A stretch of DNA of 64,000 nt. It comes from a virus (lineage: Duplodnaviria; Heunggongvirae; Uroviricota; Caudoviricetes). Made by a program: the position numbers and the translations under genes. Shown piece after piece: positions 28 to 51,991 of the stretch (positions are counted from its first letter, which is position 1; each line of letters opens with the position of its first letter). The stretch lies in the IMG/VR virus record IMGVR_UViG_2654587674_000003. One strand, 5' to 3'. The notes under the pieces are model-generated. The model was not told the origin of the DNA and did no database searches. It saw only the letters and a program-made list of their open reading frames with translations.

Positions 28-71
28 CCATTTGTGTTAGAAAATACATATTAATTATCTAACACAAATGG
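28..71. promoter_or_regulatory. palindromic pair of TTTTCTAACA-type boxes (candidate C1-type operator)
   Basis: ccatttgtgttaga-N16-tctaacacaaatgg perfect inverted repeat; the same 10-mer recurs at 12 or more intergenic sites in this window. Confidence 0.4.
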
Positions 72-80
72 GTGCATTTT

Positions 81-734
81 CTATCCTTTCTTGAAATCGA
101 AGTTGCCAGCAGTGGCCTGAAAGGTTCCTCCTGCCTTGAAAGCTATGTCTCCGTTAGCGGTGACAGCAATATTTTCCCCATTAACATTGATGTTGTTGGC
201 TGATTTGACGTTAACACTCCCTCCTGCATTCACGATTACATCAGCCGGACCAATGATATATATCTGCCCAGACTCATTTATGCCAATCCTTGAGCCTGCT
301 GCCGTATTGGCAATTTCATAGCCGCCACCAGCAGTTCGTACTTCAAGAATATTGTTGCGGTGAATAACGAAGTCTTTCGTTGCTGAGATTTGGGGGCGGG
401 GAGGTGCTCCATCTACTTCCGGCGGCGTCCAGCCGTTGCCTTTGCCAGATGCTTCTGGTGCAACGTTTGGAATTCCTCCCGGTGCATCCTGAGCGGCACC
501 AACTATCATTGGGCGTCTGGTGTCTATTCGACCGTTAACATCTAAATAAGGAAACTCCACCCAGACCAGGTCACCTTTGACTGTAGGTACAAAAGCGTTC
601 CCGATGGGTAACTGGTATTCCGCCCAGGGTAGATCGTCATCAGGAACGCCATTCCAGTCAGGTAAAACACGGACTTGAGCACGCATAAGCCCTGCCGGGT
701 GCACAGTTCCAACAATTTGCGCTCTACGCTTCAT
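81..734 (-). CDS. baseplate spike/hub-like structural protein (gpV/gp45-like)
   Basis: 217-aa ORF; N-terminal region followed by Gly/Asn-rich repeats (NINVNGENIAVTANGDIAF) typical of spike proteins; first of four minus-strand ORFs with overlapping stops and starts. Confidence 0.4.
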   Translation of the reverse strand: MKRRAQIVGTVHPAGLMRAQVRVLPDWNGVPDDDLPWAEYQLPIGNAFVPTVKGDLVWVEFPYLDVNGRIDTRRPMIVGAAQDAPGGIPNVAPEASGKGNGWTPPEVDGAPPRPQISATKDFVIHRNNILEVRTAGGGYEIANTAAGSRIGINESGQIYIIGPADVIVNAGGSVNVKSANNINVNGENIAVTANGDIAFKAGGTFQATAGNFDFKKG

Positions 735-1711
735 TTGTTCGGCACTCCCAATATCATTCGTGTTGTGTAGCCTACGCGGTCCTCAAAGTGCGCAACATTT
801 TTTACTATCAGCTTACGGGGCATTGATTCATCAATGCGGTTTTCCTGGTCATAGCGGTATACGATAATCTCTATCACCATTCCCGGTTTTATATCAGGAT
901 TGCCTGCGACTTCTATATCCATTTTGGGGACGAGAGACAGCTGCATATTGCGAAGAGTTTCCATATCAGAGTCGGATATATAACGCACTGGGAGTGAGCT
1001 ATCGCCATATTCGACGTAGCCATCGGTCATGGAATACCCAACAAAACGATATTGATTCTTTGCTGTTGTCGCATGTTCCTGTTGGAGTAGGCGCATTTTT
1101 GACAAAGTGTATTCTGCTTTAGGGTTATTCCCCTCGTAGGTAAATGATGGCGTTTGCTTCATCAGATCAGCCAGGGTGTAAAAGTTAAATTCCCCCCGAC
1201 ATACCCAACACAATGCACCTTTGTCTCGCGCTATCTCCGAAAGCATTTTTGACGGTTTGTCACCGGCATTCAGATGATATGTAACTGCGCGTTTTAGCAC
1301 GCTGCTGGTAATTTTAAGTTTGCCGGAATATGCCTTGAATATAGCGTCTGGTGTTTTGTTGGTATGTAAATTTGTGCGCGGGGAGGGGATCTTAAACCTG
1401 CGCACGTCTTCACTGACAGCAATAACGGTAACAACATCACCAGCCAGCATTGCAGACGTAACAAAGAAATCTGTTTTAAAAGTGCCTGCATTACCGTTTG
1501 GATCGCCCATTTCAGCCACCAGCGATGCACCGTATTTGGCTTTCCAGTCATCAATTACGGTGCCGGTAGCGTCATGAATTTCCAGTTTTAGCAAAGGGGC
1601 TTTGAGGCTGGTTTTTTCTACATATACTGCGGTAAAAATCCAGTCTCGTGGCACTTTGTTATCGTTAATGAGCACTGACTGTAGAAAATATTGTTGTAAC
1701 TCCTGGGCCAC
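731..1711 (-). CDS. phage tail/baseplate-module protein, function unknown
   Basis: 326-aa ORF, 4-nt overlap with the downstream spike-like gene; no recognisable catalytic motif. Confidence 0.35.
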   Translation of the reverse strand: MAQELQQYFLQSVLINDNKVPRDWIFTAVYVEKTSLKAPLLKLEIHDATGTVIDDWKAKYGASLVAEMGDPNGNAGTFKTDFFVTSAMLAGDVVTVIAVSEDVRRFKIPSPRTNLHTNKTPDAIFKAYSGKLKITSSVLKRAVTYHLNAGDKPSKMLSEIARDKGALCWVCRGEFNFYTLADLMKQTPSFTYEGNNPKAEYTLSKMRLLQQEHATTAKNQYRFVGYSMTDGYVEYGDSSLPVRYISDSDMETLRNMQLSLVPKMDIEVAGNPDIKPGMVIEIIVYRYDQENRIDESMPRKLIVKNVAHFEDRVGYTTRMILGVPNK

Positions 1712-1714
1712 TTA

Positions 1715-2482
1715 TCACCCCATAGATATCGAGGTTTCGGTAATAATACGTTTTGCGTCCAACTCCCATGCTGTGATCACGTCTGCAATCACACTTATCG
1801 GCGCTTGTGTGGCATAAATACGCTCTTCTCCAATTGGTGCTGAAACATCCGTAAAGCCGACTTCTTTGGCATCCTGTATCGAGCAAATCAGCGGGACCGG
1901 GACACGAACAAGGTGAGTGGTTGCTTCAAATTGTGTACCTGTCATCAGGCGAAGCCGTGCGCCCAGCGAATTACACATCAGACTCATGGTCGCTTTATCA
2001 GTTGCCATTAACGTAACGTCATACGTCAGAATGGCCTGGGTGTATTCCAGTTCTGCTAAAGGCATTCCGGTATCCGGTTCGCAAAAACTGGCTACTTTTT
2101 TGCGGTCAATCTGCTGATCATCGTTGATATAATTGATATCCATAGTGCGTGAGATATTGACCAGGGGGAGAGCATCCCGGTTAATGTTCTGGTTTTCAGG
2201 TTTTCTCCCTTGCCCGGCATTTGCGCGACGAACTGCTTTAAGAAACTCGATCGCATTGTCGAAACGGGCCACATAGACACGCTCTGCTGGTGGACGATTC
2301 AGGAATGACGCAAAGCGTTTTTCTTCCGGCGCGGGGGCCACCAGTAAGATATCAGAAAAAATGTTGCTGATTAGCGTCGCAAACGCGTTATCCACGTTTT
2401 CAAAGCCCGTGGTCTGGAATTTTCCTGTGCGTGAGGTTTGCCATTCACCTGTTCGCGCCAGGAGGGTTTTATTTGAAGTCAT
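1715..2482 (-). CDS. phage structural-module protein, function unknown
   Basis: 255-aa ORF in the same co-oriented block; position only. Confidence 0.3.
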   Translation of the reverse strand: MTSNKTLLARTGEWQTSRTGKFQTTGFENVDNAFATLISNIFSDILLVAPAPEEKRFASFLNRPPAERVYVARFDNAIEFLKAVRRANAGQGRKPENQNINRDALPLVNISRTMDINYINDDQQIDRKKVASFCEPDTGMPLAELEYTQAILTYDVTLMATDKATMSLMCNSLGARLRLMTGTQFEATTHLVRVPVPLICSIQDAKEVGFTDVSAPIGEERIYATQAPISVIADVITAWELDAKRIITETSISMG

Positions 2483-3282: not shown

Positions 3283-3432
3283 AGGTCGATCTGTCAGGTA
3301 TCGAAAGGAAGATTTTCGGGAGATTGTGATTTTGGATGAAGGAGGGGGAATTCATAAAATGCACTTGCGCACAGTGCAACGGTGCGCTATAGTTATGGCA
3401 TTCGGTAATCATCACGGAGGATCAAATGACTA

Positions 3433-4144: not shown

Positions 4145-4170
4145 TATAGTAAAACACATACAAAAAGCCC

Positions 4171-4197: not shown

Positions 4198-4200
4198 TTA

Positions 4201-6700: not shown

Positions 6701-7028
6701 AACAAAGCCTCTCAGTCATAACCTGGGGGAAACTGTATGCAGGGTGTGAAATGCGAGAAACAGACAGGCCACCAGTTCAGGGGGATGTGGTTCATAAATC
6801 CCCTCACTGGTGACAAGTGACTTTCATTAATCTTTATGCGGGGGCCAGCTTCATTTGCTGGCATTAGATTAAAAATCAAACGGAGTAAATGACATGGATG
6901 TTATCTTCGAATTATTAATGCTAATTGATCTGTTTATGAACGCTTCATTGACCACTCAAATACTCGCGTCAATATTTTTGTTACTCTTCTACCTGGTATT
7001 GAGGGAGTTAACAAAGCTACTAATGTGA

Positions 7029-7734: not shown

Positions 7735-7950
7735 GCTTTGGCGTTATGACTCCCTACCGCGCTTCGGCTGAAAGTTAATCGTCAAAAGAACCTTCAACGG
7801 GAGCCGTTAGCGCGATGGATTATGTGCAGTTTGTGATTTCCAGAATAGTGTCAACCACTTTTTGAGGATTTTATTATTTGACCGAAACTTGGCCTAAATC
7901 ATGTTGATGTAGTTGATTGTTTTTATAACATAAAACTTCATTTTGTTTAC

Positions 7951-8574
7951 ATGAAGGATGGTGTAGTGAAGTTAAGGGTTTTAGGGGCCGCGCTCGCGGC
8001 TATGTTGGGATGCGTATCTGCTAATACTGCCAATGCAACTGCGTTACCTGCACAATTCAGGGCAGGGCAGCAGGTTATGAATAACGCTGTTGGGGATCAT
8101 TCACAAGCGGCCATTATGGACTTTTGCAAGAGGGAGGGCATTCCATTACGGCCTGTTGGAACTCAGTTTATTGGTAAAACTGACTTTTGCGTTTTTGCAT
8201 ATACAGCATATCTGACGGACAAAGCTATAACAAAAACAGGTTATTCAACCAAAGATACTCTTTCCAGATTAAGTCAGGGATGGCAGCAATTCGAAGTGTA
8301 TCGCCAGCAAGGATTAGGTGAGTTATTGCAACCACTTTTTATGCTTGCGTTGGTGCCAGAGGGGCAGCAATTTTTGGTTAAAAAGGGAATGCTTCGCCAA
8401 AGTGATATTGCCGGGTTCGATAGCATGATGGCTTATGAGCGCAAACTAACCGAGCAGCGAAATAAAAAACCATCTGCTTCATGTGTGCAAAGTAAAACAG
8501 CAGAATACAGTGCAGTAGCCGGGCCTTTAGCCAAACAAATGGCAGAGCAATGGTGTAAAAAATACGGGCAATAA
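7951..8574 (+). CDS. exported protein or lipoprotein, function unknown
   Basis: 207 aa; N-terminal signal peptide LGAALAAMLGCVSANTANA with possible lipobox. Confidence 0.45.
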   Translation: MKDGVVKLRVLGAALAAMLGCVSANTANATALPAQFRAGQQVMNNAVGDHSQAAIMDFCKREGIPLRPVGTQFIGKTDFCVFAYTAYLTDKAITKTGYSTKDTLSRLSQGWQQFEVYRQQGLGELLQPLFMLALVPEGQQFLVKKGMLRQSDIAGFDSMMAYERKLTEQRNKKPSASCVQSKTAEYSAVAGPLAKQMAEQWCKKYGQ

Positions 8575-8594
8575 GTTACGCAGCGGAGGCAGAA

Positions 8595-8987
8595 TTGAAC
8601 AGATTGGCTATTGCTTTACTGGCGTCTTTCCCTTTGATCGCGAGCGCCGGAAATTTACAAGTTAAGTGCGGTCGGTTTGATATAAAAATCTATCCAGATG
8701 CCATATTTCTGAATGGGAATAAGGTTGATAACGCACACCGAAAAACTGAATCTGACGTAATGAGCTATGTGTTCCAGGAGTATGCGGAGATGGGGGGAAC
8801 TTACACGCTGTACTCGCTGGATGTTCCTTCTCGCGGTGATATGACATTATCCCATCAATGGCAGAACGCCGATGGCGAAGCTCTGCGCGAGGTTAAAACA
8901 GAAAAATGTGGCACTTTCCATTCTTTTAAAGGGAAAGCGCCAAATGTTAAATCTGTGCTTGAAAAACAGCGCGCAGGTGAGCTTTAA
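8595..8987 (+). CDS. secreted protein, function unknown
   Basis: 130 aa; signal peptide MNRLAIALLASFPLIASAGN. Confidence 0.45.
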   Translation: MNRLAIALLASFPLIASAGNLQVKCGRFDIKIYPDAIFLNGNKVDNAHRKTESDVMSYVFQEYAEMGGTYTLYSLDVPSRGDMTLSHQWQNADGEALREVKTEKCGTFHSFKGKAPNVKSVLEKQRAGEL

Positions 8988-9295
8988 ACACCTTTAACCA
9001 CGGAGATGCCGTTCCCTGCACGATAGCTGCGGGGAACGGAATTCTCCATCAGGTCACGAATTACTCCCGCCTCATGTAGTTCCTCTGTTTCCCAGTATCT
9101 GTTTGTCACCAGATCCAGGCTGGCTATGACCTTGTGCCGGTCATTCGGCATAGCCAATTTTTCTGCTATAACCATCAGTGAAAACTCTTCATCCAGTAGG
9201 ATTTGATACCAGACTTTTGCCAGTTCCAACTCTCTAATGAGGGTGAAGCGCCGCTCAAGTGTGGCGGCAGAATAAGTGAAATCTATTTTTTTCAT
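8984..9295 (-). CDS. hypothetical protein
   Basis: 103-aa ORF convergent with the exported-protein genes. Confidence 0.35.
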   Translation of the reverse strand: MKKIDFTYSAATLERRFTLIRELELAKVWYQILLDEEFSLMVIAEKLAMPNDRHKVIASLDLVTNRYWETEELHEAGVIRDLMENSVPRSYRAGNGISVVKGV

Positions 9296-10511: not shown

Positions 10512-10696
10512 ATTGGCAGCCTCCTTTGACTAAGTTAAGGAGCTACCGCGTGAGGTTCCAATCTCAATGGCGGTAGCACTGACTGGGTTGGAACTACCGG
10601 CGTCAAAGGGAACCGGCCTGCCTTTCGGCAGCCCAGCCAGCACTACCATTGATCTCTGAGCTAAACGCTAAGTATGGCTGTGCGATGGCATGACAC

Positions 10697-10785
10697 AAAA
10701 AAAGACGCGTTCGGCGTCTGTGTCGCCTTTGACATTATCCGGGGTTCCAATCCCGGCACCCGTTTTTCTAAGGTGCCGTAGAAAT
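10697..10785 (-). ncRNA. candidate c4-like antisense regulatory RNA of cassette 1
   Basis: minus-strand promoter-like TTGCGC-N18-TATATT near 10793..10826, hairpin whose loop carries GGTTCCAATC, then hairpin plus U-run terminator (10697..10718); same 10-mer and a near-complement lie in the icd leader. Confidence 0.3.
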
Positions 10786-11313
10786 ATACCCCACGATAAT
10801 GCCATGGCGCAACAGTCAGTATTTTATGCTTTGGCGGATTTCTTCCGGGCTTGCTTGCAGGCGTAGGCCATTGCTTTAGCTTTCACTTCATCCAGCTTCC
10901 CGGTGATCACTTCTTTTCCGAGAGTGACAAACCAGTCATAGCAACCGCCAGTAATGTTCTTGATTTGAAAGTTGAGGTAGCGAACAGTCATTTTGACACC
11001 CCCAGCGCGAGTAAAGAATGCAGATTATCGCGTGAGTGGTGGACGACGAGTGATGGGAAAAGACTGTAGTTGTTCATAGTGTAGTGACTCCTTGCTTTCG
11101 GAGCCGCCATTGACTGTTCCACGGTCTGGTGGCGGCGCAATAAAGGCTGGAACACCGTGAGTCAACGGGGGCTTTTCAGCCACCTATATTGCACCGCCAT
11201 AGGTATAGCGGCGGCAATAATACGAAAAACTAAACAGTTTGTCTCAAAAAGTTGACCGGTGTGCCAATCGGTAGTGAATGTACATCGGGGAAATTTACAA
11301 TTCAACTTAAAAT

Positions 11314-11327
11314 GTTAGAAAACTAAT
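11314..11327. promoter_or_regulatory. TGTTAGAAAA box
   Basis: tgttagaaaactaa at the 3' end of ref. Confidence 0.3.
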
Positions 11328-11901
11328 TTATCAATTCAATCGCCATCTGATACAACGCCATTTCATCGGCATTGTGCCGTATGAAATCTGCTTTTCCGCC
11401 TATTTTTCCATCAGCATGAACAGGGACCAGCCAGGGATATTGTTCTCGGACCTCGGCTGGCGCTGCGTACTGGTGGTGCCATTTACACAAAGGGAGGACA
11501 TATTTATGCGCGTTCTCTGCCGTTCTCCCGAAGATATGGTGCAGGGATACTACTGGGCTATGTTGCCCGTGAATATGGCAGGCAATGCAGGGGAGAGTAC
11601 CGATAGCGGTCTGTATCCGGCGTTCATCGGCTGTGAGTGATCTGCCCTTCAGGCCGCGTGACGTGCGTGTTTTTTTGGGCGGAGCGGATACAGCTTTATC
11701 TTTTCTCCGCTGTTCATATTGCTTTGCTTTTTCAATTTTCTTTTGCCGATATTCAGGCGATGCGGCTTTTTCTCTCGCTCGCTGCTGCTGGCGTTGAGCT
11801 TGTTGAAGGCGCTTTGCCCTTTGTTCCTCTCGCCAGGCCGGGTCAGCCAATTTTTGCATGGCTTTTTGTCTCTGTTTCTCCCAATAACTCTGTTTCTGCA
11901 T
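11323..11901 (-). CDS. ref: Ref-like HNH endonuclease (recombination enhancement function)
   Basis: 192 aa; long basic Gln/Arg/Lys-rich N-terminus then HNH-type motif LPCIACHIHG..VSLHHIFGRTA..HKYVLPLCKWHHQYAAPAEVREQYPWLVPVHADG, the architecture I recall for P1 Ref. Confidence 0.7.
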   Translation of the reverse strand: MQKQSYWEKQRQKAMQKLADPAWREEQRAKRLQQAQRQQQRAREKAASPEYRQKKIEKAKQYEQRRKDKAVSAPPKKTRTSRGLKGRSLTADERRIQTAIGTLPCIACHIHGQHSPVVSLHHIFGRTAENAHKYVLPLCKWHHQYAAPAEVREQYPWLVPVHADGKIGGKADFIRHNADEMALYQMAIELIN

Positions 11902-11950
11902 GATGGCAGTCTCTTACTTTTCAACGATTTTTCTATGATTGATCAAAATG

Positions 11951-11982
11951 GTTAGATATTCAAAATTGATTTTCTAACATAA
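11951..11982. promoter_or_regulatory. TTTTCTAACA box pair upstream of ref
   Basis: gttaga-N16-tctaac inverted pair; about 60 nt upstream of the ref start codon. Confidence 0.4.
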
Positions 11983-12173
11983 AACATTAATATCATTCCT
12001 GATAACTGTTTGGAGGACATGATGCTTATAGCTTTAAGTGCGATCCACCAGCCATCTGTGAATGAGATTGGCCTGTTCTATGTGTTGGTTTTCGGGGCGT
12101 TGGCGCTACTTGAGCTTGGTATTGAGCTTTTCGCAGTGCTTATGTTTTGCGTCACGATTCTGGGGAAATTTTG

Positions 12174-17177: not shown

Positions 17178-17203
17178 TCAAATCATTTACGCACTCAAAA
17201 TGC

Positions 17204-17233
17204 GTTAGAACATTGATTTTAGTTTTCTAACAT
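17204..17233. promoter_or_regulatory. TTTTCTAACA box pair followed by TATTAT
   Basis: gttagaa-N13-ttttctaaca-tattat, about 45 nt upstream of ORF 17275. Confidence 0.4.
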
Positions 17234-17274
17234 ATTATTTTACCGCTCGGAACAAAACAGAGTCGGTATACATT

Positions 17275-28087: not shown

Positions 28088-28132
28088 AGCACCCTCCTAA
28101 ATAGGCGAGGGTACTTTACAGCAAAGGCGTTA

Positions 28133-28158
28133 ATCTAAAAAGATGTGTTAGAATTTTA
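28133..28158. promoter_or_regulatory. TGTTAGAA box pair
   Basis: tctaa-N8-ttaga between recombinase stop and next gene. Confidence 0.3.
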
Positions 28159-28160
28159 AT

Positions 28161-29189: not shown

Positions 29190-29341
29190 GAAACTATTTA
29201 ACCTCTATATACAGATGACGCTACGCGAAAAATATAAAAATGACAGGGTAGCTATAAGTTAATTTTCAAGATTCAAGCCTTTGATCCGAGGCACGTATTT
29301 TCAGTGATGTCAACACTGATCATCTACCCATGATTATAGCC

Positions 29342-29373
29342 TAACTTTAAATAATGCCAATTATTTAAAGTTA
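29342..29373. other. rox-like lox-type recombination site
   Basis: taactttaaataat-gcca-attatttaaagtta: perfect 14-bp inverted repeats with 4-bp spacer; arms share ATAACTT...ATA with loxP. Confidence 0.85.
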
Positions 29374-29556
29374 TAAAATGCCGATTTTTTTTAATCCATC
29401 ATAGATTGATGATGACCAGTAACACGTTGCCTTCATGGTCTTTAATTTGCGAAGTGTGGTTTCTACGGTTGGTTTTCTAAAATTGATGACAAAAAATCAC
29501 AGTTCGATCCTTTACTCACTCTGTTATTCGACATAAATTTGTCATAGTAATTTTAT

Positions 29557-29570
29557 GTTAGAAAACTAAA
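29557..29570 (+). promoter_or_regulatory. TGTTAGAAAA box
   Basis: tgttagaaaactaa 14 nt upstream of the RBS of ORF 29584. Confidence 0.4.
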
Positions 29571-29583
29571 TCGAGTAGGAATA

Positions 29584-30621: not shown

Positions 30622-30630
30622 TCACAACCG

Positions 30631-30654
30631 GCCCCGCATCGCGGGGCTTTATAT
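30631..30654 (+). terminator. intrinsic terminator
   Basis: gccccgc-atc-gcggggc followed by tttatatat. Confidence 0.5.
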
Positions 30655-33521: not shown

Positions 33522-33910
33522 AAAGCAACACCACGCTTTTTAACGGCGGCATTCCACAGCTTATTCGCCATGTCCACCAGCTCTCGTTGCTCTTTTCGCG
33601 CCTGTTCGACTGATTTCCTGCTACAGTTTTTAACCAGTAAACTGCCATATTCAGGGGTTCGCCCACGCACCTTGAACTGATATCCGTTCAGGCCATGCAA
33701 CCAGTATTTTCGTGGGTAAACACGATCATCAAGCTCACAGATTGCCCTGCTTGAACGAACAAAATGACGAATGATGTTAGTTACACTTACTCGTGAAACA
33801 TGGAGATGAGGGTATTTTTCTTTGGCGAGAGTGGTAATTTCAGTGACTGTCAGATAGCAGTCAGCCCTGATCATGATATCCGCAATTTCTGCGCTGCTGA
33901 TTTGTTCCAT
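33518..33910 (-). CDS. candidate late-gene activator (Lpa position)
   Basis: 130 aa immediately upstream of pacA, as lpa is in P1; positional inference only. Confidence 0.3.
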   Translation of the reverse strand: MEQISSAEIADIMIRADCYLTVTEITTLAKEKYPHLHVSRVSVTNIIRHFVRSSRAICELDDRVYPRKYWLHGLNGYQFKVRGRTPEYGSLLVKNCSRKSVEQARKEQRELVDMANKLWNAAVKKRGVAL

Positions 33911-33988
33911 TAATCCCCCGGGCAGGAAATGACCGAGGGGATGATAATGAGAATGTTAAAACTGTATAGACTGGTAAAAAGATGATTG

Positions 33989-34017
33989 TATTAGAAAATT
34001 AATACTAAATATCTAAT
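33989..34017. promoter_or_regulatory. TTAGAAAA box pair upstream of lpa-like gene
   Basis: attaga-N16-tctaat about 80 nt upstream of ORF 33518..33910. Confidence 0.4.
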
Positions 34018-34018
34018 G

Positions 34019-34411
34019 CTACCAGCGAGACAAACGAACAACATGTTTCACTTTTGCGATCCACTGTCCGCGATAACTATTGATTACGGCCTGTGCCAGC
34101 TTCAAATTGGCTTCAAAATCAGCCTTACTACCATCAGACTCCACCAGCATTCCTCCATCTATTTCTGGTAAACATAGATAATCCTGCTCAACCTGCAGCG
34201 GCATTGATGGCTCTCTGAATGGGGTTACTTGCTCTGCTTTCCAGCGAAATCTAACCCTTATCCCCCTGGTGGTCATTACTAGATAGCCTGTTATAGTGCT
34301 TTTATGGCCCACATCAGTACGCGTGGCATTGCATGACACGATCTTACAGTTAGCGATAGACCACTCCATATTGGTGGCCTGTTGAGTGCTTAATTTGGTA
34401 GTCCCGTACAT
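34019..34411 (-). CDS. hypothetical protein
   Basis: 130-aa ORF. Confidence 0.4.
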   Translation of the reverse strand: MYGTTKLSTQQATNMEWSIANCKIVSCNATRTDVGHKSTITGYLVMTTRGIRVRFRWKAEQVTPFREPSMPLQVEQDYLCLPEIDGGMLVESDGSKADFEANLKLAQAVINSYRGQWIAKVKHVVRLSRW

Positions 34412-34986
34412 CAGAAAGCCTCCCAGTCAGTCGCGATAATATCCACACCAGTTGCAAACCAGTCTGTCTGCGCCTGTAAATCCCCATTCATCATTACCAG
34501 GCGAGGCATCACCATCACATCGCACCCTTCCACAATATCGAATGCCTCTTCCGGCAAGAATTCGAAGAGCTTTTCTTTGCTGCCAATACTGCCACGGAAC
34601 ATCGATATATAGCTCCCTTTGGGCCATGATGTCCGCCGGGCATCAAGCCCTTTCATCATCCAGTAAAAAGCCGAGGAAAAAGGGATATTCTTTTTGCCAA
34701 TGATTACATTATTCGCTTCTGTGTACTTCAGGAACTTAACTAACCTTACCATTGACTCGGATAACGCAACGTATGGCTCATGATTGATTGCTGACACGCT
34801 TACACCGTGCAATCCAACGCTTACCACTGTCATATCGCCGCTCTGTGCGGTTTCGATATTGACGCCTTTGCGAACTAATGAGGCGTAAAGTTCCTCTCGC
34901 TTTTGGGTCCAGCGTTCCCGCTTCCCTATGAAGTCACTCAAAATGAGATCTTCTTCTGCATATGCGTTATCGTTCGCCATTAACAT
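34411..34986 (-). CDS. hypothetical protein
   Basis: 191-aa ORF. Confidence 0.4.
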   Translation of the reverse strand: MLMANDNAYAEEDLILSDFIGKRERWTQKREELYASLVRKGVNIETAQSGDMTVVSVGLHGVSVSAINHEPYVALSESMVRLVKFLKYTEANNVIIGKKNIPFSSAFYWMMKGLDARRTSWPKGSYISMFRGSIGSKEKLFEFLPEEAFDIVEGCDVMVMPRLVMMNGDLQAQTDWFATGVDIIATDWEAF

Positions 34987-35190
34987 AACGTCTCCTTTTT
35001 ACACGCGCGACCATCTCTCGGTTAAACCGATAGAGATGTCGAAACTTCGTATTAATTAAGGGTTACAGCCTGAGCGGCTATATGATGAATTGAAAGGAGT
35101 TGTGGCGGTGGTGCCTCCACCTGCCAGGTCAGCCACGCCCGGCGACGACACTTATCAGAACCTCAATGAATGAAAATGGCTTCGTCACGA

Positions 35191-35260
35191 GCGCATAGCC
35201 GCAATTACCACAACGGAAACGGCGCTCGCGTTAATTAAACGCCTTTTCCTGTTGTGCGCC
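35191..35260. repeat. hairpin repeat family, copy A
   Basis: gcgcatagccgcaattaccacaacggaaacggcg...cgccttttcctgttgtg; stem covaries with other copies. Confidence 0.45.
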
Positions 35261-35440
35261 GTACTCTTCCGGCTGTCACACCGAATCGCCAGGATGGTGA
35301 GTCCTCGGTCCGACGATATGAACGGGGCTTGCACATTCCGGCTACCTGGTTTGTTGCCTGAGCTAGGGGAAAAGGTAACCCCTTTAACGTCACCAGACCG
35401 CTAACGACGCATGTGCCAGACGCCGTGTTACAACCAAATA

Positions 35441-35516
35441 TGGTGGCCCCTACCGGACTTGAACCGGTGACCGTGCGATTATGAGTCGCCAGCTCTAACC
35501 ACTGAGCTAAGGGGCC
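35441..35516 (-). tRNA. tRNA-Ile (anticodon CAU; Ile2/lysidine type)
   Basis: GGCCCCTTAGCTCAGTGGTTAGAGC...CTCATAA...GGTTCAAGTCC...GGGGCCACCA; near-identical to E. coli ileX as I recall it. Confidence 0.85.
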
Positions 35517-35525
35517 AATTAGTTT

Positions 35526-35639
35526 TTATTTTCGACGCCTGAGATTCTTCGCTACTTGTTCTACTCCGTATACGATCACAAGCAGAAATAGCAAAGACCA
35601 TCCAGGGTTCTTATCAATATACGTCCAAAAATCCATCAT
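35526..35639 (-). CDS. small hydrophobic peptide
   Basis: 37-aa ORF MMDFWTYIDKNPGWSLLFLLVIVYGV..., ATGA-coupled to upstream small ORF. Confidence 0.2.
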   Translation of the reverse strand: MMDFWTYIDKNPGWSLLFLLVIVYGVEQVAKNLRRRK

Positions 35640-35800
35640 GAGTTCCTGAACGCAGCTTTAATAATCGGCAATAGCAATACCACAGCTACTGAAACCAGTG
35701 CCCCATCAGCCAACACCGACATCACTTTGCTGGTGAAATCCACCAGCACGGACAAAACGAGAAAACCAATGGCGCACGCAATACGCGCCTTGCCAATCAT
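35636..35800 (-). CDS. small membrane peptide
   Basis: 54-aa ORF MIGKARIACAIGFLVLSVLVDF..., start overlaps the TerB-like stop (TAATG). Confidence 0.25.
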   Translation of the reverse strand: MIGKARIACAIGFLVLSVLVDFTSKVMSVLADGALVSVAVVLLLPIIKAAFRNS

Positions 35801-36234
35801 TACAGATAATCTTCCACACGAAGGCCCAAACGACGGCCTACTTCTTCCAGTACTTTGTGTTCTGCTGGCTCGATTTCACCGTCCGCTTCTGCAATCGTCA
35901 GCATGTTAACGAATACTTCTTCCGCTTCTTTTGGATCATTTTTGATATCTTCAATTTCGCGAAGGATATTCATGCGACCAACACGGAAACCAGCTTCCAG
36001 TTGCTCAGTAAAACGGGTGATTGTTGCGGTAATTTCGTTGCCAAAATGACTTAAGCGAGGATTAGAGCGGACAAGCTGATCAAGTTTCGCTGTTTCTTCC
36101 TTTTCGATTTCACCATCTGCGGCAGACACCAACAAACAGCCACCGATAATGGCCTCCATCAGATCGCGATTCTCAACCCTTTTCAGCTCTACTTTTGCTG
36201 AAGCGACTTTCTTACCGAAAAATTTACCGAACAT
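35800..36234 (-). CDS. TerB-family protein (TciA-like)
   Basis: 144 aa; duplicated AADGEIEKEE / AEADGEIEPAEH motifs typical of TerB. Confidence 0.6.
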   Translation of the reverse strand: MFGKFFGKKVASAKVELKRVENRDLMEAIIGGCLLVSAADGEIEKEETAKLDQLVRSNPRLSHFGNEITATITRFTEQLEAGFRVGRMNILREIEDIKNDPKEAEEVFVNMLTIAEADGEIEPAEHKVLEEVGRRLGLRVEDYL

Positions 36235-36370
36235 TGGTTATCCCTCAATAAACATGACGTATTTATTAGGTTGCGGTGCCTGGTGCCTCCAGGTGACGTT
36301 AACCAGTTAACAATTAACGCCGGGATGTTTGACTTAACCACTAAGGAGGATTGTTTTAACTGTTCCGCGT

Positions 36371-36405
36371 GCGCATAGCCGCATTCACCGCAATGGTAAG
36401 AGCAC
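36371..36405. repeat. hairpin repeat family, copy B (5' motif only)
   Basis: gcgcatagccgcattcaccgcaatggtaagagcac. Confidence 0.35.
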
Positions 36406-36501
36406 TTGGCTGGCTGGGCGGCGATGACGCCTGTACGCATTTGGTGATCCGGTTCTGCTTCCGGCATTCGCTTAATTAGCCAAATACTCTTAACGTTGCA
36501 C

Positions 36502-36588
36502 TGGCGGAGAGTAATGGAATCGAACCATCATCGCTTGCGCAATGGGACGGTTTTCAAGACCGTTTGAGCACCATGCTCCCTACTCTCC
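36502..36588 (-). tRNA. tRNA-Ser (anticodon UGA)
   Basis: minus-strand GGAGAGT...anticodon loop CTTGAAA, long variable arm, GGTTCGATTCC T-loop, ACTCTCC-G-CCA. Confidence 0.75.
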
Positions 36589-36666
36589 AGTGATTGTGAT
36601 GGTCGGTGCTGAACTCCGACACAGGGTTGTAGCAAGCCCCGCAAAGCGCGCACTACTGTAGTTGCG

Positions 36667-36786
36667 GCACATCAGCCTGTGCATTCACCACAATGTTGAG
36701 AACACTGGTTGTCACGCTGCAACGCAACATTTATTCGTAGATTGGGATATGACCCCGTTACGCCAGTGTTCTCAACGTTGTAGTGC
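36667..36786. repeat. hairpin repeat family, copy C
   Basis: gcacatcagcctgtgcattcaccacaatgttgagaacactgg ... ccagtgttctcaacgttg (17/18 complementary). Confidence 0.45.
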
Positions 36787-36910
36787 CGGTTACGGTTCCG
36801 GCCAGGCCTCTTCCTCAACGGGGTGTTCTCCATACGGACTACCGTTTATTGGTCGTTCCTGCGGTTTATGTTGTGAAGCCAGATGCTTATCTTCTGGTTG
36901 CTTCAAAGAG

Positions 36911-36989
36911 CTGCACTTCATCACAACGGTAAGAGCACTCGATGCATTTAAGCCAAGCCCCATAAGGGAGAATGCCCTTACCTGTTGTG
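36911..36989. repeat. hairpin repeat family, copy D
   Basis: ctgcacttcatcacaacggtaagagc ... gcccttacctgttgtg. Confidence 0.45.
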
Positions 36990-37094
36990 TTGTGATGACC
37001 GGTGCTGATCTCCGGCTTGCGGTTATTTCAGACTCTCACGGGCGTTTAATTGCCCCGCCGAACAGCTCTTTTCCGCAATAGCTGCAATGTCTTT

Positions 37095-37202
37095 CGCGCA
37101 TCAGCCTGCGCATTCATCACAACGGTAAGGGTACTTCGTAGGGATTCGAACCCTCTGCCAAGCTCGGCGATCTCCGACGTCGCAAAATACCCTTACCTGT
37201 TG
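37095..37202. repeat. hairpin repeat family, copy E, with embedded tRNA-like T-arm
   Basis: gcgcatcagcctgcgcattcatcacaacggtaagggta ... tacccttacctgttgtg; interior carries GAGGGTTCGAATCCCT on minus strand but no D or anticodon arm. Confidence 0.45.
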
Positions 37203-37205
37203 TGC

Positions 37206-37281
37206 TGGTGCCGATTAACGGACTCGAACCGCTGACATCCTGCTTACAAGGCAGGCGCTCTACCAACTGAGCTAAACCGGC
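37206..37281 (-). tRNA. tRNA-Thr (anticodon UGU)
   Basis: GCCGGTTTAGCTCAGTTGGTAGAGC...CTTGTAA...GGTTCGAGTCC...ATCGGCACCA. Confidence 0.8.
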
Positions 37282-37283
37282 AT

Positions 37284-37359
37284 TGGCGATGGTGGATGGA
37301 TTTGAACCATCGACCCGTTGATTAACAGTCAACCGCTCTAACCGCTGAGCTACACCATC
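37284..37359 (-). tRNA. tRNA-Asn (anticodon GUU)
   Basis: GATGGTGTAGCTCAGCGGTTAGAGC...CTGTTAA...GGTTCAAATCC...CACCATCGCCA; 2 nt upstream of tRNA-Thr. Confidence 0.8.
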
Positions 37360-37559
37360 ACTTGCCGGGTACGTCTCCGGCGAGGGCTTCCACCTCCGTA
37401 TGCTTTTCGGCGCACCGCGCCCTGGGTGCAATTCGGTAACAGGGGATGCACAACCCTGGCTTCCAGCGTGATTAGCGCCTTCAGCATGACGGGATATACC
37501 CGTAGTAGGATGTTATCCCAGAAAGCCATTAACCAATGGCTGTTACGCGGGAGGGACGT

Positions 37560-37636
37560 AACAGGTAAGGGCGCTGACCAGAAAGACCTGACCCTTCTCA
37601 TTCATCTGGTTAATCACACCAGCGCCCTTGCCTGTT
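37560..37636. repeat. hairpin repeat family, copy F
   Basis: aacaggtaagggcgctg-N43-cagcgcccttgcctgtt. Confidence 0.4.
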
Positions 37637-38575
37637 ATGCCTCCCCGTTCCCTAATACACAGACGGGGACACTCTGCGGTCGATTTTTTGACGGGGGACG
37701 ACTCATACCCCGTGGCGTCAGGCTTCTTAGGCCGCTACCATCATCAGATCATCGTTTGCATTTACTTTAATGGTCGGGTTCTAAACCGCCGCAAAGTCGC
37801 TAACCATGACGAAAACCCTAAAAAAGCCCACCCGAAGATGGGCAAATACGCTACATCTCACACAAGAAAGAAGCCGACTGCCTGAGCTGGATTCACTTTC
37901 AAATGCCCGCTGAAAGGGATCACAAGTCGGCTTCTTTCTTGATGCGGCACTCTCTCCGCCCGTCACCGCTCTGTCTCGGTTGTCGCGTTTGCCACGCCAG
38001 CCGTAACGAGGTTTAAAGTCTTTGCACGTTTCCATCACTCGACTGCCGTCTGTGGCTGTTCGTTGCAGCGGGGGTGCCTCCCCCTGGGGATATCCCCGGC
38101 CTTACCCCATTCTTTCAAGACACAATGCAAGGCCACATCCGCATAGGTGCATTACCGCAACATTAAGGAGACTCAGGGCAAAAGGTAACCGCCACAAAAA
38201 TCCCTATGCCTCCTTAATGTTGAAGATGTGCATTGATGATTAGATGCAGCATGTACCGTTACTCTCTGCCGGACCATCATCAATGAACACCTTAAAAAGA
38301 CCTTCCGTGGCTCAACATGTATTGTCGTTTACTCCGCAAAGTGCTCTCTCTGAAACCACTTTCCGCACTAAACCTGTTGAACTTTGGTCTGCTCGGTGCC
38401 AAAGCGTGCTCTTGGTTTACTATACTTTTCTAACACTTTAATTTGTTAATTGCTGGTGGGCATACAATAACCAATAAGTGACTATCAAGCCCAGCAAGCG
38501 AAACGTGGGTACCGCCCACCAGCAAGGAAAATTCTATGTTAAGTCATCTTCACAATCAATACATTCAAATTGTGA

Positions 38576-38597
38576 TTTTAGATTTCTAACACATTAT
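38576..38597 (-). promoter_or_regulatory. TTTCTAACA box facing the 1.2-kb noncoding region and tRNA genes
   Basis: ttttagatttctaacacatta; on the minus strand reads TGTGTTAGAAATCTAAAA toward lower coordinates. Confidence 0.35.
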
Positions 38598-39802
38598 TTC
38601 CCGTAAAGATCTTCTACACCCCCATTCTTCTTATCCCATTCGTTCGCCCATACCCGGCAAGCGTCAATGATTTCCTGACGACGATCTCCTTGCATGAACG
38701 GAATGCTTTCATGGAAACAGCTTGGAATGCAGGCCACACTGAATACAGTATCAAACTCCGTCTGCTTGATTGCCTCCAGCGTCTCCGGACGCATTTTTAA
38801 TTCATCGATTGGCGCATCCTTAGAGTCCATAATCCGGCGATATAAGCGCGGAAAATCCGTCTCCAGGTACGCCATAATTTTATCTGCGAGACATTCGTCT
38901 ATGTCGGTATTCCAGTCCTTTTCGAAGCCCGGCAGGCGATAGTAAAGCGGCGTTCCCCATACCGATGGGATCACATCCATCGTTAACAGGCGATTAGTTC
39001 TGATTTGTTGATGGTAATTAGCCGTCAGCAGTGCTTCGCCACGCTGCCCAGTTTCCGCAACCAGGCCGTGCGGATACTCATGGATGTAGGCAATGGCATC
39101 CCTTCCATCATACATAAGTGGAAATGTCTCTGGTCTTTGTCCCATGCCACAAGCACGGTTCAGATCGTGACCAAGCTGTGAACACTCTCGCTTTAATGTT
39201 TCGATAATGCTCTGCGCTGTAGCCAACTTTTTACGCAGTGTGACGCCTTCGCCTTGATAATCAATGCATTGCTGATTGAGCTTGGTTAAACGCTCTTTTA
39301 GTTCCCGGCGCTCTCTTTTCAGCGTGCGGTTATCCTTCTCCGCAACATCCAGCCGCTTTGTCAGGCTTGGCGGATAGTCTTTTTTGTAACGGTTCAAATC
39401 GGCTTCGGCAGATTTACGCAGTGTATTTGCCTGTTCAAGACGCGCTTCCAGATTGCCGATCTCATTACGCATATTCGCGGCAAATTGATTAACTGCATCG
39501 CCCAGGCTTTCAACTGTCGCTGATACGCCTGTGACTTGTGAAAAACGGATCAAGCCATCATTAACGGCTTGTTGGTATTCCTCAAACTGATCCACCAGCT
39601 TATTGTAATCAACTGCCCCATCATCAAGCAGCTTGTTGATTTCCGCCACTAGGTTATCTGTAGTGGCAATGACACTCTCGTGCAGTCGCTTTGACAGGTC
39701 ATCACCCGGATTCCGTTTCTGTATAAGAGCGATTTGTGTGCGCAGCGTTTCAATTGCTGTCGAGATAATTTCCAGATTAGAAGTATCAGTGTGTTGACTC
39801 AT
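38594..39802 (-). CDS. coiled-coil protein, function unknown
   Basis: 402-aa ORF; box 30 nt upstream of start. Confidence 0.45.
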   Translation of the reverse strand: MSQHTDTSNLEIISTAIETLRTQIALIQKRNPGDDLSKRLHESVIATTDNLVAEINKLLDDGAVDYNKLVDQFEEYQQAVNDGLIRFSQVTGVSATVESLGDAVNQFAANMRNEIGNLEARLEQANTLRKSAEADLNRYKKDYPPSLTKRLDVAEKDNRTLKRERRELKERLTKLNQQCIDYQGEGVTLRKKLATAQSIIETLKRECSQLGHDLNRACGMGQRPETFPLMYDGRDAIAYIHEYPHGLVAETGQRGEALLTANYHQQIRTNRLLTMDVIPSVWGTPLYYRLPGFEKDWNTDIDECLADKIMAYLETDFPRLYRRIMDSKDAPIDELKMRPETLEAIKQTEFDTVFSVACIPSCFHESIPFMQGDRRQEIIDACRVWANEWDKKNGGVEDLYGK

Positions 39803-39830
39803 TGCTATTCCCGTTACTTTGTTAAATTAT

Positions 39831-39846
39831 TTTTCTAACATATATT
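39831..39846 (-). promoter_or_regulatory. TTTTCTAACA box
   Basis: ttttctaacatatatt about 30 nt upstream of the start of ORF 38594..39802. Confidence 0.4.
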
Positions 39847-39882
39847 ATTAGTTTGATGACAGTATCGAAAGATGCAATAAAC

Positions 39883-39910
39883 AAAAAACCCGCTAATTGG
39901 CGGGTTTTTA
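39883..39910 (-). terminator. intrinsic terminator
   Basis: aacccgc-taattg-gcgggtt with A6 on plus (T-run on minus), just after the stop of ORF 39916..40230. Confidence 0.55.
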
Positions 39911-39915
39911 TGCAA

Positions 39916-40230
39916 TTACTGTGTTGCAGCCTGATAAATAAGATACGCGATAAATACAGGTACGATGGCCAATTGCAGCAATGAAAGTAGCCTCATTACT
40001 GTTATTGGGGTAACTCCATCCACGTATTGTTTCTCTGACATTTTCCCGAACCAACTAACCGACAACAGTGCCGAGTTTTCCCCCAATTCCAGCTCTCTGA
40101 GAGCTTCACGGATTAACGGCGCTGTCACAGCCTTAACCGGTGTGCTCAACGTGATACTCCGCGTCCTCCCCGCATCGTCAGCGAACGCCAGACTCACATA
40201 ATATTTTTTGCTCAATGTACAAACTCCCAA
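39916..40230 (-). CDS. small membrane protein
   Basis: 104 aa with C-terminal TM segment LLSLLQLAIVPVFIAYLIY. Confidence 0.4.
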   Translation of the reverse strand: MGVCTLSKKYYVSLAFADDAGRTRSITLSTPVKAVTAPLIREALRELELGENSALLSVSWFGKMSEKQYVDGVTPITVMRLLSLLQLAIVPVFIAYLIYQAATQ

Positions 40231-40735: not shown

Positions 40736-40873
40736 CCAGTCCAGGACGCGAACCTGCTCGTAATGCTCATGGTTCCTTTTGATTAGATCTGGGTTTTTCT
40801 CCAGTTCTCTAAGAGCTGCGGCATGTGGGGATGTTTCAGAATATTCACTGCGACGCCTTCTCTTTCGCGCTAT

Positions 40874-40887
40874 TTTTCTAACACACC
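40874..40887 (-). promoter_or_regulatory. TTTTCTAACA box
   Basis: tttttctaacacac upstream of the VRR-NUC-like gene. Confidence 0.35.
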
Positions 40888-48628: not shown

Positions 48629-48779
48629 AGGATTTCCCCCTCTAAACCGTAAAAAATTCCGCTATGCGGTACGGTTGAGAGGGTATGGAGAATGTTATTT
48701 TCAGGGGGACGATACTACCGTCAAAATCACATACTCCCCATAGTTTGCCTACTTATTAACCCATGACCGGGAGAAAAAT

Positions 48780-49289: not shown

Positions 49290-49297
49290 ATCACGCT

Positions 49298-50426: not shown

Positions 50427-50583
50427 AGTTACGGCCTCATTCGTAGGTTTAACAACCTGCGCCCCGCTGCTAAACGGGTGGCAGGACGTGACGGGGTTAG
50501 CAGACTGGCACGAATGAAACCAGCAGGCCGAAGCCTCCCCATCACGCCCCACCATAATTCGGGCGTAACGTGGTTTTACGGAC

Positions 50584-50700
50584 ACAAAAATACCGCAATA
50601 TCGGATATCTGCGGTTGTCCGCATTCGTATTCAGGCTGCTAAACCCGGTCGCAGAATTTGCTACGACGACATGAATATAAGCCTGAAAACATGGAAGATC
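50584..50700 (-). ncRNA. candidate c4-like antisense RNA of cassette 2
   Basis: conserved gacacaaaaa plus hairpin terminator (50584..50615) as in cassette 1; loop-candidate GCTGCTAAAC repeated in icd leader (50467..50476) with partner gttagcag. Confidence 0.25.
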
Positions 50701-50757
50701 AACTAAAAATTTCAGCAATGGATGATTTCAGTCGATGATGCAGATCATACATTCCGA

Positions 50758-50790
50758 TTTAGAAACAGCAAATTAATTTTCTAACACAAA
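50758..50790 (-). promoter_or_regulatory. TTTTCTAACA box pair at the head of cassette 2
   Basis: tttagaaac-N10-ttttctaacacaaa. Confidence 0.4.
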
Positions 50791-50840
50791 TTATTGAGAG
50801 AGCATTTTCCGATCATTGGGATGTTTTGTAGACGCACAGG

Positions 50841-51803
50841 TCATCCCCTAAAGCCAGCCGGGATTGACCAATCCTCACGGTCAAATTCAGACCGATAGCC
50901 ACGCTGTTTCATCAGGTCAAAGGCTTCACCAATGGTTGCACACCCCTGGGAGCCAGAATAATCCATTGAGAAATCCAAGGCACTGGATTGTTTAGGCTTA
51001 TTCACTGCGGTAGCGGCACTACGTATCCATGCAAATTTTTTTGCCAGCTTTTCAGCGGTACGATACAGAGCCTGCCGTTTTGCGTGCCCCTCGTCTGAAC
51101 GACGCTTTGCAGCTCTCGCTTTTGCCGCCGCCAGGCAGTGGTTGGTATGTTCTTCCCTGGTTACTGGTTTTTTATCCAGTACCACGTTATCCGTTTGAGA
51201 ACTATCTGCTGGTGAAGCCTTTGGCTGAACCGCGCATGATCTTTCTCTTCTTTTGGCTATAGAGTGACTCTTATTTTCTATTGGCTGTTCATTTTGAACA
51301 TGGGGGGACTTGTTCAATTTGAACAGGGGGGTCCCAGTTTCAAAAAAATAACGAACCTTTGAAATCAACTGCTTAACCAGTTTTGTGGCGTTGGCAAATT
51401 TGATGCCCTGCTTACCCCCTATCTCCATTGCTACATGAATGAAGTGGAGAAATTGTGTCGTAAACCGATATACGTTACACACCTGGGCATTGTTATTCGC
51501 TACCTGATGTTGCTTAACAAGCATTCCGCACTTCGTCGCTTCAGCAAATGCCCGGCGCACAGTAGAAATACTGCGTCCTGTAATCTCGGACATATCAGCA
51601 TATGAGCGACGGATCATGTATTCATCGGTAGACCCTGCCAGGTTGGCGAACTCGGCAATAATGGCGCTATGTGAAGGGGAAAGAAGACCGCTATGACGAG
51701 CAAAAAAACTCAACTGATGACCTTTGATTTTTTTGTGGTATTCAGTGTTGTTTTTATACTCAGAAGTGTTGAAAGTTACTGAAACTGAATTTAAAATACT
51801 CAC
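50841..51803 (-). CDS. HTH-domain DNA-binding protein, function unknown
   Basis: 320 aa; winged-helix-like MIRRSYADMSEITGRSISTVRRAFAEATKCGML; basic C-terminal half. Confidence 0.4.
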   Translation of the reverse strand: MSILNSVSVTFNTSEYKNNTEYHKKIKGHQLSFFARHSGLLSPSHSAIIAEFANLAGSTDEYMIRRSYADMSEITGRSISTVRRAFAEATKCGMLVKQHQVANNNAQVCNVYRFTTQFLHFIHVAMEIGGKQGIKFANATKLVKQLISKVRYFFETGTPLFKLNKSPHVQNEQPIENKSHSIAKRRERSCAVQPKASPADSSQTDNVVLDKKPVTREEHTNHCLAAAKARAAKRRSDEGHAKRQALYRTAEKLAKKFAWIRSAATAVNKPKQSSALDFSMDYSGSQGCATIGEAFDLMKQRGYRSEFDREDWSIPAGFRG

Positions 51804-51977
51804 CAGATAGTTCCGTGAAAAAATCTATCTACCGTATAAATCTATGGCAGTGGATTTATACACCCAAAAAGCCGCTTCTCAGCGGCTTTTGCTTTTTTGG
51901 CAGTCGCTACCGGAGCAGTGACCGCGATCCTACTCGATCCCATCCACCAGGATCAACAGTGTATATAAATACACTAT

Positions 51978-51991
51978 GTTAGAAATTTAAC
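51978..51991 (-). promoter_or_regulatory. TGTTAGAAA box
   Basis: tgttagaaatttaa about 175 nt upstream of ORF 50841..51803. Confidence 0.3.

Follow-up and report, generated by a model that had tools for sequence, protein, structure and literature searches.

The 64,000-nucleotide stretch of DNA analysed here (IMG/VR record IMGVR_UViG_2654587674_000003, Caudoviricetes; called the window below, at its full length) carries a short box, TTTTCTAACA, dispersed upstream of many of its operons. With a probability of about 0.85, judged from sequence comparison, these boxes are the operator cores of a C1-type prophage repressor encoded in the window itself, at 29584–30621. The set of boxes is most likely the same kind of network as the C1 operators of phage P1, which is expected biology; it is the recognition sequence that differs, being AATTTTCTAACAYA in the window and ATTGCTCTAATAAATTT in P1. 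Site coordinates refer to the window unless D6 is stated.

The element that carries the boxes could be identified by comparison with known phages. Escherichia phage D6 (MF356679) matched window positions 28000–40000 with 98.7% identity over 87% of the length, while P1 and P7 matched the same region in patches only. D6 position 1 (the rox site) corresponds to window 29358 and D6 64162 to window 81; from the match and this coordinate map, the window represents ~70% of a D6-like plasmid prophage. D6 genes are named in GenBank by similarity to P1, and the neighbours of each site were taken from the D6 annotation transferred to the window, together with Rfam and ARAGORN. Operator or promoter features are absent from the two D6 GenBank records inspected (MF356679 and AY753669), and a full-text literature search with the motif strings returned unrelated primers only. 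D6-type operators may already have been described in the D6 genome paper (Gilcrease and Casjens 2018).

Nine exact copies of TTTTCTAACA were counted in the window against 0.18 expected, a number reached in none of 100 shuffles, and 18 copies were found when up to one mismatch was allowed (5.2 expected). Among the over-represented 10-mers of the window, TGTTAGAAAA/TTTTCTAACA stood near the top of the ranking, preceded only by its own overlapping sub-variants. The box is the core of an asymmetric motif of 17–19 bp, AAATTAaTTTTCTAACAya, which in the TGTTAGAAAA orientation reads t-r-TGTTAGAAAA-y-TAAttT. Information content extends from 2 bases 5' of the TGTTAGAAAA core to 7 bases 3' of it, giving an asymmetric profile made of the 10-bp core and an AT-rich arm on one side only. 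Scanning viral contigs for the exact sequence TGTTAGAAAANTAATTT returned at least 120 stretches, mostly singletons in unrelated contigs, and was uninformative; in so large a collection, an AT-rich 16-mer would be expected to yield such singletons.

Fifteen strong copies, at 13 loci of the window, were used to build a 19-column position weight matrix (PWM). These sites score 19–31 bits, values that are circular for the 15 seeds, and every other position of the window scores 12.5 bits or less; in second-order Markov random sequence, 0.3 sites reached 14 bits. As an independent check, the full D6 genome gave the same picture, with 16 sites of at least 19 bits, of which only D6 54201–19 lies outside the window. 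Although 90% of that genome is annotated as genes, 15 of the 16 sites are located outside genes or touch a stop codon only, the sole exception overlapping the uncertain TTG start of pmgM. One-mismatch copies within genes (4427, 46371, 54800 and others) score below 12 bits, occur at chance level and were excluded as members. An earlier note on this DNA had described the box as intergenic, which these counts bear out, and all 12 of the positions that it listed were recovered by the genome-wide scan with small shifts. Its entry at 28133 is a real site better placed at 28144–62, and its list lacked the exact copy at 38426 and a weak but conserved core, TTTTCTAA, at 29473.

At five of the 13 loci the sites form inverted pairs, here called bivalent operators, in which the offset between the cores is always 20 bp. 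The remaining loci are monovalent, with no recognisable partner half, so the statement of the earlier note that the boxes often occur as inverted pairs applies to those five loci and not to the others. Relative to the downstream genes, the motif is found in both orientations. This architecture resembles that of P1 and P7, in which the operators are likewise dispersed, intergenic and asymmetric sites of ~17 bp with monovalent and bivalent forms. P1 C1 binds 22 such operators with the asymmetric 17-bp consensus ATTGCTCTAATAAATTT (PMC8546580), the same consensus that the earlier note had given for P1.

The candidate binder is a C1 homologue of 345 amino acids encoded on the plus strand at 29584–30621, between rox/dre and pacB. 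It belongs to PHROG 1678 and to Pfam PF27008 (Phage_P7_repressor_C1), the same family as the P1 and P7 repressors, and is 21% identical to P1 C1 (BLASTP, E 1e-8), which is also in PHROG 1678. From this homology and from position, we infer that the boxes are bound by C1, which would act as a monomer and repress transcription by binding. Its own gene is preceded by a monovalent operator at 29554–29572 (plus strand, 26.4 bits), which lies 12 bp ahead of the c1 ATG, a little 3' of a predicted c1 promoter (29511–29539, plus strand; −35 TTTACT, −10 TAAATT) that is conserved in relatives. By analogy with P1 Oc1 (Op99), this would be the autoregulatory site of c1. Upstream of the predicted promoter is the weak core TTTTCTAAAA (29473–29482, plus strand). 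The TTTTCTAA core at 29473 is kept in all four aligned elements (the window and three relatives), and in two relatives that are more distant its counterpart matches the motif in full. This core probably represents a second operator, which flanks Pc1 and faces rox/dre. In alignments with relatives whose flanks have diverged, the c1 operator and promoter stand out as conserved islands.

The other sites are distributed in a manner that recalls P1, in which C1 controls RepL and Lpa (PMC8546580) and for which the annotated C1 operators are Odmt, Oc4, Oref, Oppp, OpmgT, Ossb, Oc1a-e, Olpa, Obanab, OpmgRa/b, O26 and OrepL. Targets common to both elements are c1, lpa, repL, c4-icd-ant, ref, dmt, the tRNA/ban operon and pmgR/S and, compared by position, the operator sets of P1 and the D6-type element correspond essentially unit for unit. 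For example, the bivalent operator at 33–66 (33–51, plus strand, 23.5 bits; 48–66, minus strand, 26.7 bits), arranged as TGTTAGAAAA-N10-TTATCTAACA, lies 12–45 bp upstream of hrdC-dcm-dmt, which leaves the window leftward. In D6 it occupies 64114–64147, between hrdC and gene 5, and its positional analogue is P1 Odmt (Op68), which heads uhr-hrdC-dmt.

Two operators surround ref. The monovalent site at 11311–11329 (plus strand, 26.8 bits) lies directly past the ref stop codon and heads the leftward unit o86-o85-isrK-c4-icd2-ant2, being the analogue, for immunity cassette 2, of P1 Oc4 (Op51). The bivalent operator at 11948–11981, with a strong half at 11963–81 (minus strand, 26.9 bits) and a weak half, GGTTAGATAT, at 11950, is situated where ref (minus strand, ATG 11901) and a rightward early operon, o88..ppp (ATG 12022), diverge, and it overlaps a predicted promoter, TTGATT-16-TAATAT (11966–11993); its analogue is P1 Oref/Oppp. 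Another bivalent operator, at 17201–17234 (halves of 20.8 and 27.6 bits), is 41–74 bp upstream of a pdcB-like operon that starts at 17275 and ends with a pmgU-like gene, and overlaps the predicted promoter TTGATT-17-TATTTT (17213–17241). The monovalent site at 28144–28162 (plus strand, 25.6 bits; core AATTCTAACA, with two mismatches) lies between the dre stop codon and the leftward operon o117-o116-dut-o114-isaA and is conserved in relatives. Because P1 has an ssb-isaA operon, this site is possibly the analogue of Ossb.

Upstream of lpa-pacA-pacB, at a distance of 77–110 bp, is the bivalent operator 33987–34020, the analogue of P1 Olpa (Op94). One half scores 24.8 bits and the other, weaker half 11.9 bits; both are conserved in relatives, where they form conserved islands in the alignments. 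Closer to the gene, directly upstream of the lpa start, a GC-rich inverted repeat, CCCCTCGG...CCGGGGG, was found at 33912–33945 (minus strand). It is conserved in three relatives and may be a stem–loop affecting lpa translation or transcription.

Two monovalent sites on the minus strand, conserved as a pair in relatives, accompany a strong predicted sigma-70 promoter that points leftward (38531–38559, minus strand; TTGATT-17-TAGAAT). The site at 38575–38593 (26.3 bits) is 16 bp upstream of the −35 of this promoter, and that at 38419–38437 (19.4 bits, with the exact copy at 38426) is ~95 bp downstream of it. The two sites jointly correspond to Obanab (Op72), the operator heading the tRNA/ban operon of P1. 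The operon that follows the promoter consists of a ~1.1-kb leader and then tRNA-Asn, Thr and Ser, tciA/B and tRNA-Met on the minus strand. By ARAGORN and Rfam, the tRNAs for Met, Ser-UGA, Thr and Asn are at 35441–35516, 36502–36588, 37206–37281 and 37284–37359, all on the minus strand, which fits a leftward operon starting from 38531–38559, as in the ban/tRNA operon of P1. The D6 GenBank record places tRNA Ser, Thr and Asn on the plus strand and has no feature where the window has tRNA-Met. The leader region itself (37360–38530, ~1.1 kb) contains no convincing open reading frame (ORF) and is unannotated in D6 (7850–9085). A search of it with Rfam at a permissive threshold gave nothing credible and no DicF-like match; the region may be a long leader or an unrecognised RNA.

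Further sites precede pmgS and pmgM. The operator at 39824–39842 (minus strand, monovalent, 28.3 bits), 10–22 bp upstream of pmgS, has P1 OpmgR (Op86) as its analogue. At 40867–40885 (minus strand, monovalent, 20.2 bits), the site covers codons 13–18 of the annotated TTG-start pmgM ORF and is the analogue of P1 O26/Oppp (Op82/83); a weak partner at 40921–39 (12.5 bits) lies over the −35 of the predicted promoter TTTACA-16-TATTAT. The best site of the window, TGTGTTAGAAAATTAATTT (50770–88, minus strand, 30.9 bits), forms a bivalent operator at 50755–50788 with the weak half ATTTAGAAAC, located 75–108 bp upstream of the c4 a1b1 element, c4 RNA, icd1 and ant1, and corresponds to P1 Oc4 (Op51). 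The monovalent site at 51975–51993 (plus strand, 26.4 bits), the analogue of P1 OrepL (Op53), is 172–190 bp upstream of repL, the gene for lytic replication.

With regard to the c4 units, the window was found to hold two immunity-I-type cassettes, each downstream of a TTTTCTAACA operator. That at 10566–10776 (minus strand) has a c4 RNA and an isrK-like RNA (10698–10776), and that at 50474–50680 (minus strand) has a c4 RNA and an a1b1 target element.

Most of the sites overlap predicted sigma-70 promoters that point at early genes, all promoter predictions being the output of a simple home-made scorer. The −35 of these predicted promoters, often TTGATT, falls in the AT-rich arm of the operator. 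The TA-rich hexamers that the earlier note had seen after several copies are therefore present, but they fit the −10 elements of early sigma-70 promoters and not those of late promoters. Since the AT-rich arm often provides a TTGATT −35 and TAACAT can serve as a −10, the box might also be seen as the shared core of duplicated early promoters, without a dedicated binding protein. This is very improbable. The box occurs in both orientations and in inverted pairs of fixed spacing, one site is downstream of the predicted c1 promoter and another upstream of the −35 of the tRNA operon, and the TGTTAGAAAA core is far more constrained than sigma-70 elements. Moreover, the motif is replaced wholesale in clades that have a different C1 and the same host RNA polymerase, as the comparison of relatives revealed.

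In these comparisons, the motif was unchanged where C1 is 44–100% identical to that of the window, and other dialects appeared at ~30% identity and in P1 (21%). A Shigella dysenteriae plasmid with a C1 69.5% identical has the same motif at orthologous places, with all bivalent pairs present and the 20-bp offset kept. In two contigs with C1 proteins 51% and 44% identical, the motif was found at c1, lpa, pdcB, a recombinase-adjacent operon and downstream of pmgS, with two inverted copies flanking the c1 promoter. In all relatives examined, c1 is directly preceded by a conserved site. The D6-type motif was absent from the P1/D6-like plasmids of Citrobacter portucalensis (NZ_CP099368) and Leclercia adecarboxylata (NZ_CP042508), whose C1 proteins are ~29–30% identical. 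There, in a k-mer analysis covering 30–40 kb, the most over-represented k-mer was (A)ATTCTAAGG, with the flanks taATTCTAAGGyttt. The ATTCTAAGG network is like that of the window in being dispersed and intergenic, in its TCTAA core and in its corresponding positions, where the motif precedes c1, rdgC, ref and the recombinase-adjacent operon and follows pmgS.

The pentamer TCTAA is thus common to all dialects, the D6-type TTTTCTAACA, ATTCTAAGG and P1 TTGCTCTAAT, set in different flanks: TTGC-TCTAA-TA in P1, TTTT-TCTAA-CA in the D6 type and nAAT-TCTAA-GG in Citrobacter and Leclercia. When the matrices were compared with each other in the TTTTCTAACA orientation, P1 and the D6 type shared T..TCTAA.A, with ~1.5% of column shuffles reaching the score. 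An alignment by the AT-rich arms (TGTTAGAAAAYTAATTT against ATTGCTCTAATAAATTT) was tried as well and discarded, its score being at chance level (reached by 56% of column shuffles). The recognition sequences are otherwise distinct. TGTTAGAAA occurs 12 times in D6 and never in P1, TGCTCTAAT occurs 14 times in P1 and never in the window, and one-mismatch versions of TGCTCTAAT number six in the window against 15.8 expected. In the absence of P1/P7-consensus sites, the element would be a heteroimmune relative outside the P1/P7 immunity group. The bivalent operators differ too. On the TCTAA alignment, those of the D6 type stand back to back with cores 21 bp apart from centre to centre and a total of 30 bp, whereas the two sites of P1 face each other with cores 13 bp apart and a total of 28 bp; expressed as offset, the values are 20 bp between D6-type cores and 11 bp in P1. 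The earlier note had held that the box differs from the P1 consensus, which is correct, but the two motifs are not unrelated, as TCTAA is common to both.

The motif co-varies with the C1 clade, and the graded series of motifs and C1 proteins is the pattern expected if C1 binds, although clade co-variation cannot separate C1 from genes inherited together with it. The boxes could be bound by another regulator, such as an unrecognised early repressor, a Cro-like or antirepressor-associated factor or a host protein, and the circuit is not identical to that of P1, given that Lxc and Coi were undetected. We consider this improbable, since the set of sites follows, gene for gene, the P1 C1 regulon as defined by experiment, the site at c1 is kept throughout the relatives, all three dialects contain TCTAA, which is the core of the proven C1 operator of P1, and no helix–turn–helix repressor is annotated adjoining the sites. 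Operator positions, architecture, the site at c1 and the co-variation together argue for the proposal of the earlier note that the boxes are the C1 operators of a heteroimmune relative of P1.

The same note had offered as an alternative that the box belongs to late promoters dependent on Lpa, in which it would serve as the activator box ahead of a −10 hexamer. The comparison is a natural one, as P1 Lpa promoters are likewise a dispersed short box upstream of operons, namely a −22 box AAGTGACTT, 4 bp and a −10 hexamer; in the P1 annotation the late promoters read AACAAGTGACTT, 4 bp, TAnAAT. TA-rich hexamers do lie within a few bases of several copies, the lpa homologue of the window (late promoter activator; 33518–33910, minus strand, PF25716) is 31% identical to P1 Lpa, which makes a changed box conceivable, and of the P1-type box AAGTGACTT the window has a single copy, at 6814. 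Because of this near absence and the 31% identity, the upstream regions of the D6 late operons were inspected de novo. They share AAATCACAnnC-N4-TAnnnT. As the pattern AATMACANNCNNNNNANNNT (AATMACANNC-N4-NANNNT), the motif occurs seven times in the window against 0.28 expected, and its layout, a 9-bp box separated by 4 bp from a −10 hexamer, is exactly that of P1.

The seven copies lie upstream of gene 7 (3312–3331, minus strand), mat (7819–7838, minus), darB (48680–48699, minus), the lysozyme-like o16 (48725–48744, plus), prt (54731–54750, minus), ddrB (56178–56197, minus) and lydA (59944–59963, minus), and further D6 copies were found upstream of R, pmgB, 23 and upfC. Both the geometry and the kinds of operon match those of P1 LPmat, LPlyz, LPpro and LPdar, and AAATCACAnnC-N4-TAnnnT is likely the D6-type late-promoter consensus. 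The element therefore has its own class of late promoters, and the TTTTCTAACA box is not part of it. It is not found upstream of lydA, prt, ddrB, darB, gene 7, mat, R, pmgB or upfC, but instead upstream of lpa, c1, repL and c4-icd-ant, in both orientations and in inverted pairs, and it has no fixed downstream hexamer. With a different motif heading the late operons, the alternative can be rejected, and lpa is better placed as a target of operator 33987–34020 than as the gene for the protein that binds the box. Upstream of the late promoter of mat, a weak and degenerate operator-like sequence, TATGTTATAAAAACAATCA (7914–7932, minus strand, 8.5 bits), was also observed. It occupies the same kind of position as P1 Omat beside LPmat and may be due to chance.

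On the preferred reading of the boxes as C1 operators, each asymmetric site of 17–19 bp presumably takes one C1 molecule, and at five loci the bivalent operators would be two such sites back to back. In the lysogen, C1 bound at the 13 loci would overlap or abut sigma-70 promoters and thereby shut them off. Repression of lpa would keep all late operons off, and the same control would extend to repL and thus to lytic replication, to both c4-icd-antirepressor cassettes and to ref, hrdC-dmt, the tRNA operon, pmgS/pmgM and two early operons. At its own operator, C1 would repress c1.

The circuit nevertheless appears to differ from that of P1 in the modulators of C1. Searches of the window and the D6 genome (tblastn) with P1 Lxc and Coi gave nothing better than E 0.8, and P1 Ant1 and KilA had no homologue there either. 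Lxc was also undetected in a D6-like plasmid (PMC6799933). The antirepressors of the element belong to another family than those of P1.

Several points weigh against C1 as the binder. The case is wholly comparative, the protein is just 21% identical to P1 C1, and the P1 partners Lxc and Coi have no homologue detectable by tblastn in the window and the D6 genome. Any regulator inherited together with c1 would be expected to co-vary with the C1 clade as well. The promoters come from the home-made scorer, by which the predicted lpa promoter is weak, and two sites are unusually placed, 38419–37 being ~95 bp downstream of its promoter and 40867–85 inside an annotated ORF start.

Structural modelling provided a further lead on the protein. 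For the C1 of the window, the best AlphaFold2 model reached a predicted local distance difference test (pLDDT) of 80 and a predicted template modelling (pTM) score of 0.52, the other four models being poor; for the 44%-identical homologue, the five models had pLDDT values of 74–83. When searched against the Protein Data Bank (PDB) with Foldseek, each model gave four matches with E ≤0.001, every one a complex of E. coli Tus with Ter DNA (probability 1.00, E 1e-7 to 4e-5, 273–315 aligned columns), and the next match had E ≥0.07. The TM-scores between Tus and the C1 models were low (0.28–0.43). At the sequence level, hmmsearch of C1 against PDB sequences found no match of any kind up to E = 10, hhalign of C1 with Tus gave a probability of 0.2%, and Pfam reported no Tus-family match, with nothing better than E 0.02 from unrelated families. 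A search of the accessible literature found no paper linking C1 to Tus. The Tus-like fold of C1 is a lead that was reproduced with both models, though an unproven one.

Tus binds its asymmetric 23-bp site as a monomer, and P1 C1 is also monomeric; a Tus-like mode of binding would suit a monomeric C1 on an asymmetric operator. TerB lies 12 bp upstream of the tus ATG, a spacing that resembles that between the operator and c1 (12 bp each). The proteins differ in what their binding achieves, which is fork arrest for Tus–Ter and would be transcriptional repression for C1. A resemblance of the operators to TerB was significant for one cherry-picked site only and not for the consensus, and was treated as chance. 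If the fold holds, it would explain how a monomer reads an asymmetric site of 17–19 bp, and would link a classic phage repressor to a replication-terminator protein. We would tentatively propose, at somewhat less than even odds, that the C1 repressors of PF27008 are Tus-fold monomers on long asymmetric sites, in which a shared TCTAA core is set in flanks that differ from clade to clade. In that case, an "immunity code" of phage-plasmids could be read from the flanks, and Tus, a chromosomal fork-trap protein, would share ancestry with the C1 repressors. The D6-type branch would then run its network in the absence of Lxc and Coi, using a bivalent operator with another spacing.

Two other features of the window were noted. 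The Chi sequence GCTGGTGG is present 44 times, on both strands, against 1.9 expected. Between 60800 and 63250, in the tail-fibre/invertible region beside cin, there are four copies of a repeat of at least ~90 bp containing the palindrome TCTGGCCAGA, direct at 60888 and 61360 and inverted at 62725 and 63164, which suggests that the tail-fibre C terminus has several alternative cassettes and not just the one S/S' pair of the D6 annotation.

Phage-plasmids of the P1/D6 kind, which carry resistance genes, are common among Escherichia, Salmonella and Shigella. Since superinfection immunity depends on the specificity of C1 and its operators, this specificity bears on which phage-plasmids coexist and which displace each other. 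With the D6-type operator, the late-promoter consensus and the units that they control in hand, immunity groups would become predictable from sequence and the annotation of D6-like plasmids could be improved; the defined consensuses also make binding and reporter experiments straightforward. The Tus-like fold and the TCTAA dialects could be the parts of specialist interest.

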